A DNA stretch of 64,000 nucleotides from Planctomycetota bacterium (lineage in GTDB: Bacteria; Planctomycetota; Planctomycetia; Pirellulales; Pirellulaceae), in NCBI GenBank assembly GCA_037144155.1, contig JBAWXH010000008.1, positions 28,261 to 92,260 of the forward strand, given 5' to 3'. Both the position numbers and the translations under genes were made by a program. Numbering within the stretch: the stretch's first letter is position 1; each line of letters begins with the position of its first letter. Positions 4,367 through 64,000 of this stretch are shown here, piece after piece. Below the pieces are notes generated by a model. That model had not been told where the DNA came from. It saw only the letters and a program-made list of their open reading frames with translations, and ran no database searches.

Positions 4367-5103
4367 CTCCTCCTTTAGACGAAGACCAAGATCTCGAAAG
4401 TGCGGACGACATCCGTCGGCAGTACCACGAACTTGCAGAACTGGCAGGATCACTCGCTCACGAGATCAAGAATCCACTCTCCGTGATTCACATGAACACC
4501 GACCTCCTCTGTGAAGAGATGGAGGAAAGCCAATGGCCGGGGAAACGCCGCGCGATTGCGAAAGTGGACATGATCCGGCAGCAATGCCACCGCATGGAAA
4601 ACTTGCTTCGCGATTTTCTGCGGTTTGCCAAGATGCAAGATATGGAGATGACCGTCGGGTCGCTCAATGACCAAATCGCTGTCGTTTTGAATTTATATCA
4701 AACGCAAGCGGACAAAAACAACATTCGGCTTCAACGCTTCCTGGATCCCAATCTCCCCAACATTCGGCTCAACAGCGGAGCGCTACAGGCCGCACTTATC
4801 AACTTGGTCAAGAACGCCATCGAAGCCATGCCCGATGGAGGAGAGCTTTTTGTTCATTCCTACATCACGCCTCAAGGAGTCGCGATGGATATGATCGATA
4901 CAGGCTGCGGCATGGACGAAACCACTGCGATGCGGATGTTCGAACCTTTCTATTCCACCAAACCAGAAGGTTCGGGTTTAGGCCTCCCCACCACGCGGAA
5001 AATCATCGAAGCCCACGGCGGCCGAATTAGCGTTCAAAGCGAAGTGGGCCGAGGAACCAAATTCGTGATCGAGTTCCCGACGCCGATTCGATTGGCCACG
5101 TAA
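4363..5103 (+). CDS. Cytoplasmic histidine kinase (HisKA + HATPase) with no sensor domain
   Basis: LAHEIKNPL H-box, NLVKNAIEAM N-box, DTGCGM, GSGLGL. ATGA overlap with the pepA stop. Confidence 0.9.
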   Translation: MTPPLDEDQDLESADDIRRQYHELAELAGSLAHEIKNPLSVIHMNTDLLCEEMEESQWPGKRRAIAKVDMIRQQCHRMENLLRDFLRFAKMQDMEMTVGSLNDQIAVVLNLYQTQADKNNIRLQRFLDPNLPNIRLNSGALQAALINLVKNAIEAMPDGGELFVHSYITPQGVAMDMIDTGCGMDETTAMRMFEPFYSTKPEGSGLGLPTTRKIIEAHGGRISVQSEVGRGTKFVIEFPTPIRLAT

Positions 5104-5144
5104 ATCCAATCTCGATCAAACAATCGGCACAATGCGAGTTCTGT

Positions 5145-5166
5145 TGAGCCTGAGGCGCTAGCCGAT
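5145..5166 (-). repeat. REP-like unit (family A, TCGGCTAGCGCCTCAGGCTCA)
   Basis: tgagcctgaggcgctagccga is the exact reverse complement of the units at 35772 and 45498. Confidence 0.85.
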
Positions 5167-5246
5167 CGCATTTCGTCATGCGAGTATTGTCTCAAAACAC
5201 CTGTTGGAAGTGGCCTTTTCGCACCCTACCGTTTGATCCCTAGACT

Positions 5247-6053: not shown

Positions 6054-6126
6054 AACGGCGGGCACTGTGCCGATCGATCGGGCCTCTTCAAAGAATGGGA
6101 TAAATCTGTGTATGTCGGCTAGCGCC

Positions 6127-6303
6127 TTTTGAAGTTGCGCCATTTGAGCCTGGCGAAGCCCCAATCCATGCTTTCCCGAGCTTTTTCGTACTCGTACTCA
6201 GCGTTAGCGGTACTCGTACTCGATGGGGGATCGTCGAGTACGAGTACCATTTCATTGAGTACGAGTACGAGTACGAGAGAGCTCAAACAGCGCAACTTCA
6301 AAA
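6127..6303. mobile_element. MITE-like element, copy 1 (177 bp, 14-bp perfect TIR, GAGTAC hairpin core)
   Basis: TTTTGAAGTTGCGC (6127-6140) and GCGCAACTTCAAAA (6290-6303), flanked by direct repeat CTAGCGCC (6119-6126, 6304-6311). Homologous to 17804-17980 and 63564-63747. Confidence 0.7.
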
Positions 6304-6337
6304 CTAGCGCCTCAGGCTCAAGAAGAACAGGTTCGAG

Positions 6338-17803: not shown

Positions 17804-17980
17804 TTTTGATATGGCGCTCTTTTGGCTTCCCTCGTACTCAATGAAATGGTACTCGTACTCGTACTCGTACTCGATGCGGTTTCTTCGAGTACGAGTACCG
17901 CTATCGCTGAGTACGAGTACGAAAAGCAAGGGAAAACAGGGAATGGGGCTTCGAGACAATCGAAGATCGCAGCTTCAAAA
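17804..17980. mobile_element. MITE-like element, copy 2 (177 bp, decayed TIRs, inverted central loop)
   Basis: ttttgatatggcgc ... tcgcagcttcaaaa ends. Same AATGAAATG / GAGTAC core and AAAAGC..GGGAAAAC..GGAATGGGGCT segment as 63564-63747. Confidence 0.65.
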
Positions 17981-35493: not shown

Positions 35494-35730
35494 TGCGTTA
35501 TTCAGGACGTTCACTCGAAGGGATGCAGAAACACCTAATTGCCCTCACCGGATTGGCGATTGACAAACGTCCATCCGGAAGGGCCAGAACGAACGGTCGA
35601 ATCCCCTACATCTCAAGGTTCAACTCAAGGTACTGTTCGCCTCCTCGGCGACAAATCATGGCCACGGTTTTCATGGTCATGGTTTTCCTTGCCATTGAGA
35701 TCCCAGTTTGCTCGACACAGCCCACAAAAG

Positions 35731-35792
35731 TGAACCTGAGGCGCTAGCCGAGTTCTTTCGAAGCGCAAAAATCGGCTAGCGCCTCAGGCTCA
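35731..35792. repeat. Inverted doublet of REP-like family A units (21-bp stem, 20-nt spacer)
   Basis: tgaacctgaggcgctagccga ... tcggctagcgcctcaggctca, one mismatch. Confidence 0.85.
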
Positions 35793-36198
35793 TGGAAACG
35801 AAAAACGACTTTTGTCGCCAATGTCTTGCTCCGGTCGATGTCGAGGTTCCGAACCGTAGCAAGCAAAAGTTGTCGGAGCGGAGTGAATTCCCCCGCTATG
35901 CTCGTTTTGCTTGCATAACCCAACATTTCTTGCCTCGACCGCGGGAATGGGGGAGCGTGCGCAACCGTGCAAAACATCGCAGACTGTAGCACGATTTCAA
36001 ATCGGAAAACTAGGGATAGCGCCCTGCCCGTAGCAAATTAACGAAAAAAAACTTTCTGAAATCGGTTGTGCGGACTGGCCCTACCGACGCAACAAATCCT
36101 ATAGTGGGGTGTTGAAAAAGTATTAGTTGGTACGTTCAGCCTTCCGTCGGTTCGCAATCATCGTGTTTGTCTGTTGTTTGCTTGGGAGGAATGGCTTC

Positions 36199-45264: not shown

Positions 45265-45286
45265 TAACCATCGTCCCCCTGGGTTT

Positions 45287-45380
45287 CTCGTACTCCTATT
45301 CGATGACATGGTACTCGTACTCGTACTCGAATGATACCGCATCGAGTACGAGTACCGCGAAAGCTGAGTACGAGTACGAG
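45287..45380. repeat. Isolated GAGTAC hairpin core (copy 3, no TIRs)
   Basis: gtactc x3 - GAATGATACCGCATC - gagtac x2 - cGCGAAAGCt - gagtac x2. Confidence 0.8.
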
Positions 45381-45497
45381 GTCGCTATCACTTCGGGGGA
45401 AGATCAACTGAATCTTTCCACACAAGCATTGTCCTTCCTGCGCACGTGGTAATCCATTACTCGACGCGATTGGCAATCCAATCATGGTCGTAGTGGA

Positions 45498-61296: not shown

Positions 61297-63519
61297 ATGG
61301 TTTTTCATTCCAATTCAACAACAGCAAAACACCTTCGATGGCTCTTCGCCACCACCTACCCATGGATTTGCTTCGGAAGCATGGTGATGCTCACCACTGG
61401 CGTTCTGCCTGCGGATGAGCCTCAGGGCCAAGTTTCAACTAAGAGTTCTTCTTCCACGCTGCCGCAAGCCAGCCATCGATTCGTGCATTCCCATCGAGCC
61501 ACCGTGCGATGTGGACCCAGCGATGAGTACTACTCCACTGCGGCGCTTGAACGGGGAACACCGGTTGAGGTCTACGTCGAAACCACCGATGGTTGGTCAG
61601 GAATTCGGCCCCCTGAAGGTAGCCATGACTGGATTCCTGCCGACTCTGTCTATCTATTGCCAGGAGCACGAATCGCCGAGGTGTCGGTGGAACGGGTGGC
61701 AGCCTGGGTCGGTTCCGATTCACCGAAGAACGAAAAGCTCCTCTACCAGACCGAATTGATTCAAACGCAAACCGTTTCGATTTTAGGAGAAGCGTATCGA
61801 GGACCAGAAGAAGATCGGAAACTGTGGTTCCGCATCGCGCCTCCCCAAGGTGAATTTCGATGGGTGCGAACCGAACATCTTGGTACGGAGCCGATTGCCA
61901 AAGAAATTTCCAAAAAGAATGTTGGGGTATCCATGACTACCTCTCCAAAGAACATCACTGGAAGCGGCGTTAAAAAAGCCTCGTACCAGCCTCCTTCGAA
62001 AGATTCCAGCAACGCCCCCACGGAATCAACCGGCGAAGGGGAAATCGTATGGTCGGACGAAACAGAGCAACTGTCGAAAATCGATCGTGAGATCGAACGT
62101 GAACAGCAGGAACTGAATCGCACCGGAAAAGGTACCGCATCTAAGTCCCCGAAAGACCCCTCGGCTACACCCAAACGAACGAGTAGTTCTCAAATCAATG
62201 CCCGCAATGCATCGAACAAAATCATTTCTTTACAAACCACCGAATCGAAGTCGAATAACCGTTCCCATATCCCTACCGAAGGGGAGCCAAAACCTAGGCC
62301 GATCACCGGACCGGAGAGTGAAGAGCAGTACTGGCAAGCGATGCAACGTCAAGCGAACCAGCGCCAAGCGAAACAACCTCAGCAACAGCAACGCGATATT
62401 CCAGCCCCGTCGGGTGCGATGGGCAATATGCTGGGTCTGCTCGGTATCAGTGTCATCGATTCGAATCCCAAGGGGGCAAATGCCCAATCAACAAACTCCC
62501 TTCATCCCATCCCTCGTAGGGAACCGACTCGTAACGCGAGTCCCGCATATGGTGATAGTTACACTTCGATCGTTAATGGATACGACCCGGCCGACGGTTC
62601 CAGCCGCCTCGATCGATTGCCTCGGCCAAGAAGCCGTTATAGCACAGCCAAACGAAATAGTTTGGTTGCGGATCGTCAAGCCGATTCATCGAGCCTGCTG
62701 AATACGATCTTGAATTCGCGCGAGCCCCTTTGGGGCAATACGGACGAAAAACGCGTGGTAGATACCGCATCCAATGATCCGGCCAGCACTCCGATCGGAG
62801 TTTCTCCACCGATCTCCGCTGTGTCGTATCTCAATCCGAATAGTTCTATGCCATTATCCGGATCGCGAAGTTCCGATTGGGAGCAACCAGAGAGATTTCA
62901 GTCACCTCAGATCCAAGAGGCATTGCTTCAGTTATCGTCCATCGTCAGTCGGCCGACCAGCGAATGGCATTTGGCTCCCGTACGAGATACGGCCCTGTTC
63001 TGGATCGAACGGGGAGAAACGCCATTGCTACGAGGAGAAGCACGCTTGCTGATGGATCGCATCGATCGATTCGAGTCGATTCGTCAGAGAACAGCGGTGA
63101 TGGGTGGAGCACCTTCCATCGCTGGGCCTATCCGAACTCCTTCCATCGGCGGGCCCATCGGTACCTTGCCAGCAGTTGCCCCCAATGCAACGATGCCAAG
63201 CAACTTCTCGGTGTCGAACGCTTCTGGGAACAACTACACTCCCACCGCACCGTACACCGAAGCTGTTCCGCAACGTACCATCGACTCTGCCTCGGAACTG
63301 TCCGGTTGGTTGGTCGCAATGCATACGTCCGTCCCCGGCCAGCCTGAATTTGCCCTAACCGACGATGCGGGGAGCTTGATTGCCTATGTTCGCTCGACGA
63401 CAGGTCTCAATCTGCGTCGTTACGTGCAGCAACCCGTCACGGTTTTCGGGACGCGCGGATACATTCCCAATTTGGCCGCCAAGCAGATCGTTGCCGATCG
63501 CGTCGTAAGGATCCGATAA
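61297..63519 (+). CDS. Secreted protein with two SH3-like domains, a disordered linker and a conserved C-terminal domain
   Basis: ATVRCGP..YYST..L..G..VEV..GW..I.PP and WFRIAPPQGEFRWV; S/T/P-rich middle. Confidence 0.7.
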   Translation: MVFHSNSTTAKHLRWLFATTYPWICFGSMVMLTTGVLPADEPQGQVSTKSSSSTLPQASHRFVHSHRATVRCGPSDEYYSTAALERGTPVEVYVETTDGWSGIRPPEGSHDWIPADSVYLLPGARIAEVSVERVAAWVGSDSPKNEKLLYQTELIQTQTVSILGEAYRGPEEDRKLWFRIAPPQGEFRWVRTEHLGTEPIAKEISKKNVGVSMTTSPKNITGSGVKKASYQPPSKDSSNAPTESTGEGEIVWSDETEQLSKIDREIEREQQELNRTGKGTASKSPKDPSATPKRTSSSQINARNASNKIISLQTTESKSNNRSHIPTEGEPKPRPITGPESEEQYWQAMQRQANQRQAKQPQQQQRDIPAPSGAMGNMLGLLGISVIDSNPKGANAQSTNSLHPIPRREPTRNASPAYGDSYTSIVNGYDPADGSSRLDRLPRPRSRYSTAKRNSLVADRQADSSSLLNTILNSREPLWGNTDEKRVVDTASNDPASTPIGVSPPISAVSYLNPNSSMPLSGSRSSDWEQPERFQSPQIQEALLQLSSIVSRPTSEWHLAPVRDTALFWIERGETPLLRGEARLLMDRIDRFESIRQRTAVMGGAPSIAGPIRTPSIGGPIGTLPAVAPNATMPSNFSVSNASGNNYTPTAPYTEAVPQRTIDSASELSGWLVAMHTSVPGQPEFALTDDAGSLIAYVRSTTGLNLRRYVQQPVTVFGTRGYIPNLAAKQIVADRVVRIR

Positions 63520-63563
63520 GGGCAGAGAAGGCACAGCCGACAAAAGCGGGACTATATCGCTAG

Positions 63564-63747
63564 TTTTGAAGTCGCGCTATTTTGGCTTCTATCGTACTCG
63601 TACTCAATGAAATGGTACTCGTACTCGTACTCGAAGATACCGCATCGAGTACGAGTACCGCTAACGCTGAGTACGAGTACGAGTACGAAAAAGCTAGGGA
63701 AAACATGGAATGGGGCTAAGAGTGGCTCGAATTGCGCAACTTCAAAA
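63564..63747. mobile_element. MITE-like element, copy 4 (184 bp, opposite orientation to copy 1)
   Basis: TTTTGAAGTCGCGC ... GCGCAACTTCAAAA with CTAG immediately outside both ends; right flank continues as a family A REP variant. Confidence 0.7.
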
Positions 63748-63892
63748 CTAGCGTCTCAGACTCATGGAAACGAAAATCGACTTCTGTCGGCTTTGTCAAA
63801 AAAGAATCTGCTCCGATTCATAGCGATTTCCGACAGAGGCAAACTGGATCGCCTGACTCGTCGCCAACTCCATGCTCAATCCAACTTTTTGT

Positions 63893-64000
63893 TTAACCCA
63901 ACGACTCGGATCGCAATCGCTGATACCGAGCGATCAATTCGTCTACCTCCGTTCGCAGGGCTGCGAGCGATCCCGAATTATCGATCGAATCGGTCGCGGC
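63893..64000 (-). CDS. coaE: C-terminal end of probable dephospho-CoA kinase (partial, enters from the right edge)
   Basis: Hand translation AATDSIDNSGSLAALRTEVDELIARYQRLRSESLG*; the IDNSGSL..L...VD motif is typical of the CoaE C-terminus. Confidence 0.6.
   Translation of the reverse strand, partial: AATDSIDNSGSLAALRTEVDELIARYQRLRSESLG

Follow-up and report, generated by a model that had tools for sequence, protein, structure and literature searches.

REP/REPIN doublets are reportedly mobilised by RAYT transposases (Bertels & Rainey 2011), and ISRm22, which belongs to subgroup IS4Sa, is said to be a REP-seeking insertion sequence (IS). Recombination between two insertions yields transposon copies that lack a target duplication, as in IS-mediated deletions. 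As described by De Palmenaer et al. (PMC2266710), the IS4 subgroups have duplications of 7-13 bp and a complete YREK motif, and their end consensus is typically 5'-CA or 5'-CT; IS701 elements give repeats of exactly 4 bp and are mostly without the tyrosine of YREK.

The locus analysed here, copy 4, lies in a planctomycete genome and carries CTAG on both sides of a 184-bp element, with the mini-hairpin GTC-TCA-GAC in the place of GCC-TCA-GGC, exactly as set out in a preliminary description of this DNA. Copy 4 is a real yet ordinary nested-MITE locus, in which one copy of a common 184-bp non-coding MITE (B) is situated between the two arms of a palindromic MITE (A). The CTAG on each side is the inner end of one of two inverted target 8-mers, and there is no 4-bp duplication.

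Layout of the copy 4 locus

The window, that is the whole stretch of DNA analysed, is 64 000 nucleotides long and corresponds to C8:28261-92260 of a 5.45-Mb draft assembly of 157 contigs; coordinates are those of the window unless a contig (C) is named. From the left flank through the MITE to the right flank, copy 4 reads atatcgCTAG, TTTTGAAGTCGCGC...GCGCAACTTCAAAA, CTAGcgtctcagactcatgg, and in a longer read-out the MITE ends are TTTTGAAGTCGCGCTATT ... AATTGCGCAACTTCAAAA, again with CTAGcgtctcagactcatgg as right flank. The two CTAG tetranucleotides are located at 63560-63563 and 63748-63751, and the 184-bp MITE extends from TIR to TIR over 63564-63747. This stretch was matched by nhmmer to profile positions 1-185 of the B family on the minus strand (177 bits), ranking 14th by score among the 130 full copies, and its closest relative is C38:33401-33575 with 96% identity. 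Copy 1 was matched on the plus strand, in agreement with the earlier statement that the two are reversed relative to each other.

To the left of the MITE is the short outer arm of A (GGCACAGCCGACAAAAGCGGGACTATATCGCTAG; 63530-63563, plus strand), which aligns to the left arm of the canonical A element of the window (35714-35825) and also with the outer flanks of other B copies. It terminates in the 8-mer ATCGCTAG, a degenerate form of GGCGCTAG. To the right is the long outer arm (CTAGCGTCTCAGACTCATGGAAACGAAAATCGACTTCTGTCGGCTTTGTC; 63748-63797, plus strand), which opens with the 8-mer CTAGCGTC, aligns with the canonical right arm (86% identity to 35776-35825) and includes the mini-hairpin at 63753-63761 (plus strand; GTCTCAGAC, consensus GCCTCAGGC) with the changes C6>T and G12>A. 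With the short arm on the left and the long arm on the right, the composite at 63530-63797 measures 268 bp, equal to 112 - 28 + 184. It is bordered, without strand assignment, by AGAGAA at 63524-63529 and by AAAAAA at 63798-63803, as judged by comparing the flanks of A elements; the two agree at 4/6 positions and represent a remnant of A's own 6-bp target duplication.

Absent from copy 4 are the 28-bp centre of A and the second copy of each target 8-mer. The junctions are ...ATCGCTAG, MITE, CTAGCGTC..., which places the MITE directly between two outer arms. The left flank, cagccgacaaaagcgggactatATCGCTAG, aligns with the outer arm of an oppositely oriented unit (23/30 to cagccgacaaaagtgagcctgaGGCGCTAG), and it matches the reverse complement of the right flank at 10/16 positions; a state with two outer flanks was found only in copy 4 among the 130 full-length copies. 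Since GGCGCTAG ends and CTAGCGCC begins with CTAG, inverted half-sites around a MITE mimic a CTAG duplication.

The left core carries six changes in 16 nt, and the adjoining tail only two in 17-18 nt. Neutral decay accounts only loosely for this excess of changes and for the complementary A6-T12 pair in the left core. At 63556-63563 and neighbouring positions the difference, CCTGAGGCG to ACTATATCG, takes the form of a local AT-rich swap of five bases next to a nearly intact tail. A search of 63300-64000 against Rfam returned just a chance miRNA match, well under threshold.

Families A and B across the genome

The repeat that had been called REP family A is itself a palindromic MITE, 112 bp long; its termini are fixed and flanked by a 6-bp target duplication, which points away from a RAYT-type REP. 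The core, CTAGCGCCTCAGGCTC, occurs 241 times in the genome at up to two mismatches (165 perfect), mostly as inverted pairs 28 bp apart. The arms are distinguished by their tails, ACTTTTGTCGGCTGTGTC in the short arm and ATGGAAACGAAAATCG followed by ACTTTTGTCGGC... in the long arm, and all 21 dyads in which both tails could be classified combined one short with one long arm, with no case of short+short or long+long. The fixed termini read GACACAGCCGACAAAAG..., and about 32 complete copies, with a modal length of 112 bp, are present genome-wide. Across 32 elements the identity between left and right flanks reached 0.56 at k=6 only, compared with 0.22-0.28 for all other lengths, five of the 32 having perfect 6-bp pairs; this duplication sets A apart from REP and REPIN sequences, which are characterised by the lack of a target duplication and by RAYT mobilisation. 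An intact, empty A element at 35714-35825 (plus strand; short arm, 28-bp centre and long arm, 112 bp) served as the comparison copy. The complete element is predicted to fold at -46.7 kcal/mol with a 17-bp stem between the two cores.

For family B, elements of 150-230 bp were collected from paired TIR matches (n=86) and used to build a profile, and a search of the 5.45-Mb assembly with this profile yielded 130 full-length copies among a total of 267 non-overlapping loci. The TIRs are 18 nt long (TTTTGAAGTYGCGCTATT), with the sequence TTTTGAAGTTGCGCTATT found at both ends of copy 4, and the interior is made up of nested (GTACTC)n/(GAGTAC)n hairpins. Besides copy 4, the window contains copy 1 at 6127-6303 (plus strand), a further copy at 17804-17980 and a partial one at 45284-45414. 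Comparison of left and right flanks at every offset gave identities of 0.58-0.73 at exactly eight TIR-adjacent positions and chance level (0.1-0.3) beyond. The 8-bp duplication is perfect in 11 copies and matches at 7/8 positions or better in 28; it is gone (at most 2/8 matching) in 21/130, which indicates that secondary rearrangement is common in the family.

Against this 8-bp rule copy 4 is an exception, its flanks matching at just 3/8 positions. A 4-bp duplication was sought in the other full-length B copies and found in 0/129, copy 4 being the sole perfect 4-bp match, and CTAG touches both MITE ends in 1/130 copies, again copy 4. The preliminary description had set a 4-bp duplication at copy 4 beside an 8-bp duplication at copy 1. 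The second half of that comparison holds, copy 1 being flanked by a perfect 8-bp duplication, CTAGCGCC, at 6119-6126 and 6304-6311; the first half does not, as copy 4 has two inverted half-sites. Tabulation of the flanks likewise overturned the reading of the CTAG pair as a target-site duplication, and the alternative offered at the time, that CGCTAG is part of a longer TIR, met the same end, CGCTAG...CTAGCG being present in 1/130 copies. With a family rule of 8 bp and one occurrence in 130 copies, both proposals fail.

As expected of a MITE, B is non-coding, bounded by TIRs and dispersed in many copies; the family has a duplication of fixed length, and its ends are common to autonomous, transposase-encoding ISs in other Planctomycetota. 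The hairpin core (GTACTC)n/(GAGTAC)n was also detected without B TIRs in 37/120 other genomes searched of the same taxonomic family, and the full TIR-bearing element was found only in this genome in the 121-genome family sample; the core looks like a separate module travelling on its own. On another contig, two B copies (C71:2989-3172 and 5016-5192) lie about 2 kb apart with identical flanks on both sides; a segment of about 2 kb that includes the MITE is duplicated there in tandem, and the pair is not a composite transposon.

Normal insertions of B into A cores also occur in this genome. In 23 full-length copies the MITE has one inner and one outer flank and the CTAGCGCC/GGCGCTAG duplication, 12 copies pointing one way and 11 the other, and about 25 A dyads hold a single B MITE with the centre retained. 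Insertion in either orientation at a REP-like core starting with CTAG, as proposed earlier, was in this way confirmed, with CTAGCGCC as the 8-bp target. In a tree of the 130 B copies those associated with A did not cluster (21 state changes, compared with 22.4 when shuffled), so the copies in A cores are independent insertions. Spreading of a composite of A and B as one unit was rejected on these counts together with the mixed orientation. Insertions outside A share the motif gCTNGCGCy, and A is hit because its core, by way of CTAGCGCC, fits this target preference of the transposase.

The two cores of A were not used equally. Junctions between TIR and outer arm numbered 19 for the short and 5 for the long arm, and junctions between TIR and centre 24 for the short-arm and 2 for the long-arm core. 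The short-arm core (...GAACTCGG followed by CTAGCGCC) was preferred over the identical long-arm core (...AAAATCGG followed by CTAGCGCC) by 19-24 vs 2-5 junctions, and since identical cores are hit unequally, target recognition by B must reach beyond the 16-nt core. A true long-arm-core insertion was identified at C24:15250-15581, where the perfect 6-bp duplication of A, GAAGTA, is kept. In a different arrangement, at C2:6642-6807, a long-type outer arm stands beside the end of the centre that normally adjoins the short arm, which is consistent with inversion of the interior between the inverted arms of A. The T6 variant CTAGCGTC was enriched directly beside MITE ends (5/10 T6 units at up to three mismatches), which may reflect target preference, junction repair or merely the presence of older units.

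Origin of copy 4 and of its stem changes

Copy 4 is probably best explained by nested MITEs, with local recombination or replication slippage having joined an insertion at the short-arm core to another at the long-arm core. The B MITE would be mobilised in trans by a 1.5-kb IS4-type IS that makes 8-bp staggered cuts at the preferred target gCTNGCGCy, and a normal event would leave the MITE between two copies of the core 8-mer with the centre of A intact. One B would insert at the short-arm core and another at the long-arm core, either in the same dyad or in two alleles, and a crossover or slippage between the two insertions would then remove one MITE copy together with the intervening 36 bp. 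Recombination of two insertions predicts a reciprocal form, and such a form is present at C31:10477-10712, where the 8-mer and the 28-bp centre are found on both sides of the MITE (+36 bp). The interior of the MITE at C31:10477-10712 reads GTGCTC/GAGCAC where other copies have GTACTC/GAGTAC, and its left junction lacks 6 bp.

The gene order across copy 4 (genes for 740 aa on the plus strand and for 207 aa and 994 aa on the minus strand) is identical in two congeneric genomes; relatives in the genus are about 70% identical in the adjacent gene, and the B family is absent from them or nearly so. This conservation indicates that the event at copy 4 was local and that there is no inversion or translocation breakpoint. 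Ectopic recombination between distant loci was rejected as the gene order is kept in both congeners. The proposed intermediate, a dyad with two MITEs, was not found anywhere in the genome. Long-arm cores were hit about 5-10 times less often than short-arm cores, and at that rate fewer than about one double hit is expected genome-wide.

A direct repeat of CTAG around the MITE is also what a genuine 4-bp duplicating insertion into a REP unit, with an IS701- or IS5-like stagger, would leave; CTAG fits the YTAR targets of IS701/IS5-type elements, and the IS701 model is the best NCBIfam match of the parent transposase. We nevertheless regard such an event as highly improbable, as that match (94.5 bits) falls below the cut-off of 150 and the transposase has the full YREK motif that is missing in IS701, while the family signal is strictly 8 bp, the other 129 copies offering no 4-bp case. 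The empty site it implies, ...GAGGCG-CTAG-CGCCTC..., occurs nowhere in the genome, and the left flank is an inverted outer arm and not the inner half of one unit. Dyads or units lacking the centre are likewise absent from the whole genome, which leaves no plausible empty site for a 4-bp event and contradicts the earlier reconstruction of an empty site resembling family A. A normal 8-bp insertion might instead have been followed by an unrelated, spontaneous 36-bp deletion, through microhomology or hairpin processing of the palindrome, whose end happened to coincide with the MITE terminus. Bacteria tend to delete long palindromes, and the neighbourhood of copy 4 is decayed, with 6/16 positions of the left core changed; this course of events is still quite improbable, because two end points would be needed exactly, at the MITE end and just before CTAG, and, reasoning from the sequences, a deletion between the sole direct repeats at hand (CTAG...CTAG) would leave behind GGCG or CGTC as additional bases, and these are absent.

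The -36 form at copy 4 and the +36 form at C31 could alternatively stem from a single aberrant integration, in which the transposon ends were joined in one step to both inverted CTAGCGCC cores of one A with loss of 28 bp; opposite strand choice would then duplicate 44 bp, as at C31:10477-10712. Such dual-site capture appears unlikely, even though it would agree with junctions that are exact at the MITE ends and at the same position in each core, with the occurrence of the -36 and +36 forms once each among about 25 dyad insertions, with the absence of the doubly occupied intermediate and with the conserved synteny, hence a local event. A full-length IS copy in another genome (L011) likewise has inverted 17-nt flanks, but it represents a multi-copy IS on a contig of 1.7 kb, where the flanks are possibly an assembly chimera. 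Attack would have to fall on two phosphates of reversed polarity, 28 bp from each other, an arrangement for which we could draw no cruciform geometry that would place them, and we know of no DDE transposase that attacks phosphates so disposed. Ordinary recombination, moreover, suffices, given that long-arm-core insertions exist. That the IS4-type transposase sometimes joins its ends to both inverted cores of one A, giving either loss of the 28-bp centre or a gain of 44 bp, is accordingly a distinctly doubtful proposition; if true, dual-core joining would be a previously undescribed mode of integration at palindromic targets. Recombination of two insertions, the reading preferred here, has a more general consequence, namely that a short duplication can be mimicked when two insertions recombine at an asymmetric 8-bp target that has a palindromic tetranucleotide at its edge. 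Nested mobile elements lead to small local rearrangements, and a new question would arise only if one-step integration were true.

The second peculiarity of copy 4, the change of GCC-TCA-GGC to GTC-TCA-GAC in the right core, is read here as a coincidence of two transitions in an old, decaying unit, and no selection is shown. The 241 units showed about 30 one-sided changes at the six stem positions and a single double change, that of copy 4, with about 0.14 doubles expected by chance from the column counts; the reading as coincidence follows from this ratio and from the pairing of cores across arms. The preliminary description was right that the double change is real and complementary, and its appeal to selection did not stand up. 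Selection for a hairpin within the REP unit is very improbable, notwithstanding that the double change preserves pairing (predicted energy of the 3-bp stem -0.6 kcal/mol, compared with -2.7 in the consensus and with 0.0 and +1.0 when either change stands on its own) and that the left core in the same orientation, CTAGCGATATAGTCCC, has the complementary A6-T12 at the same positions, there within six changes in 16 nt. The stem is merely 3 bp long; in a complete A the predicted partner of each core is the other arm, through the 17-bp stem, and not the core itself, and the two arms of copy 4 are uncompensated against each other. Both changes are transitions, and the unit is old, its 50-nt tail being 14% different from that of another copy. 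Covariation of the 3-bp stem was rejected, with no signal in the 241 units nor in units found by their tails alone.

Parent element and related systems

The parent of B is a 1.5-kb IS4-type IS present in other Planctomycetota, with a DDE transposase of 454 aa and an 8-bp duplication. Of 401 genomes in the order, 102 contain the B TIR, and dozens of copies per genome are frequent. TIR counts reach about 100 per strand (genome G259) and matches are often about 100 bp from contig ends; this distribution across many families of the order indicates a widespread, active and assembly-breaking IS/MITE family. A 1508-bp element bounded by the B TIR encodes the 454-aa protein, and eight IS elements of 1445-1521 bp were identified in MAGs assigned to Pirellulaceae, Pirellula, Mariniblastus, Schlesneria and Planctomycetaceae; elements of 1505-1521 bp combine the B TIR with an 8-bp duplication. 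Two of the eight (L018 and L019, from the Mariniblastus and Schlesneria MAGs) have a perfect 8-bp duplication, and in most others (from the Pirellulaceae, Pirellula and Planctomycetaceae MAGs) it is near-perfect or partly visible. Relatives number more than 2,400 in metagenomes, for the most part on contigs around 1.5 kb long. Within the present assembly, which leaves roughly 9% of the genome uncovered, no autonomous copy was found, TIR pairs 0.6-4 kb apart holding no transposase, and a tblastn search with the parent transposase gave nothing better than E = 0.3.

The full-length IS already mentioned (L011; G470:C315, 1733 bp) lies between 17-nt repeats (CTAGCCCGAWGCGCGAG) that are inverted instead of direct, which is a resemblance to copy 4. 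Checked for membership of a REP family in its own genome, the flank repeat was present only on that short contig, and an assembly artefact is possible.

The 454-aa protein matched PF01609 (DDE_Tnp_1) with 59 bits against a cut-off of 23, and contains a complete Y-(2)-R-(3)-E-(6)-K motif (YSVRWQIELFFKELK). The criteria of PMC2266710 place it with IS4 and not with IS701, given the full YREK motif and the 8-bp duplication, which lies within the range of direct repeats of about 7-13 bp for IS4, although the NCBIfam scores of both families are below their cut-offs: at most 60.5 bits against cut-offs of 115-250 for the IS4 models, and 94.5 against 150 for the IS701 model NF033540. The ends start with TTTTGAAG and not with 5'-CA or 5'-CT, and the duplication of exactly 4 bp that is characteristic of IS701 was not observed, being 8 bp in ISs and MITEs alike. 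An IS5 or IS701 transposase had been put forward as the candidate; the complete YREK motif and the 8-bp duplication of the parent are IS4-family traits.

In this planctomycete the abundant "REP" is a MITE in its own right, and for annotation the analysis provides two nested MITE families and their IS4-type parent, described by TIR, duplication length, target motif and arm bias.

Compared with described systems, A resembles REP/REPIN doublets in its two inverted 16-nt cores with a short spacer, its intergenic location, its long hairpin and its abundance of about 240 cores in the genome. It differs from them in having defined termini and a 6-bp duplication, which point to a DDE-type MITE rather than to RAYT-mobilised DNA. 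Copy 4 itself resembles recombined transposon copies in its exact ends, in flanks that come from two insertion sites and in the loss of the intervening sequence; unlike in the usual recombined copies, both sites belong to a single 112-bp palindrome, as its paired inverted cores, and together they mimic a 4-bp CTAG duplication.

The parent and its MITE share with IS4-family ISs and their MITE derivatives, for example ISRm22, the DDE_Tnp_1 domain, the complete YREK motif, a length of about 1.5 kb and the 8-bp duplication. Insertion into a short, repeated, palindromic intergenic sequence is a further likeness to the REP-targeting elements of that family, and, as in other IS4-family MITE derivatives, the short TIR-bearing form far outnumbers the parent. 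They depart from the IS4 subgroups in the TTTTGAAG start of the parent ends and in scores that are below the cut-offs of the IS4 and IS701 NCBIfam models, and from the ISRm22 case in that the targeted "REP" is here a MITE with a 6-bp duplication and the autonomous copy is absent from the assembly. IS701 offers a distantly related DDE transposase, the best NCBIfam match (94.5 bits), and 4-bp targets of the YTAR type that CTAG resembles; the parent described here is set apart from it by the 8-bp duplication, the complete motif and a score under the family cut-off of 150.
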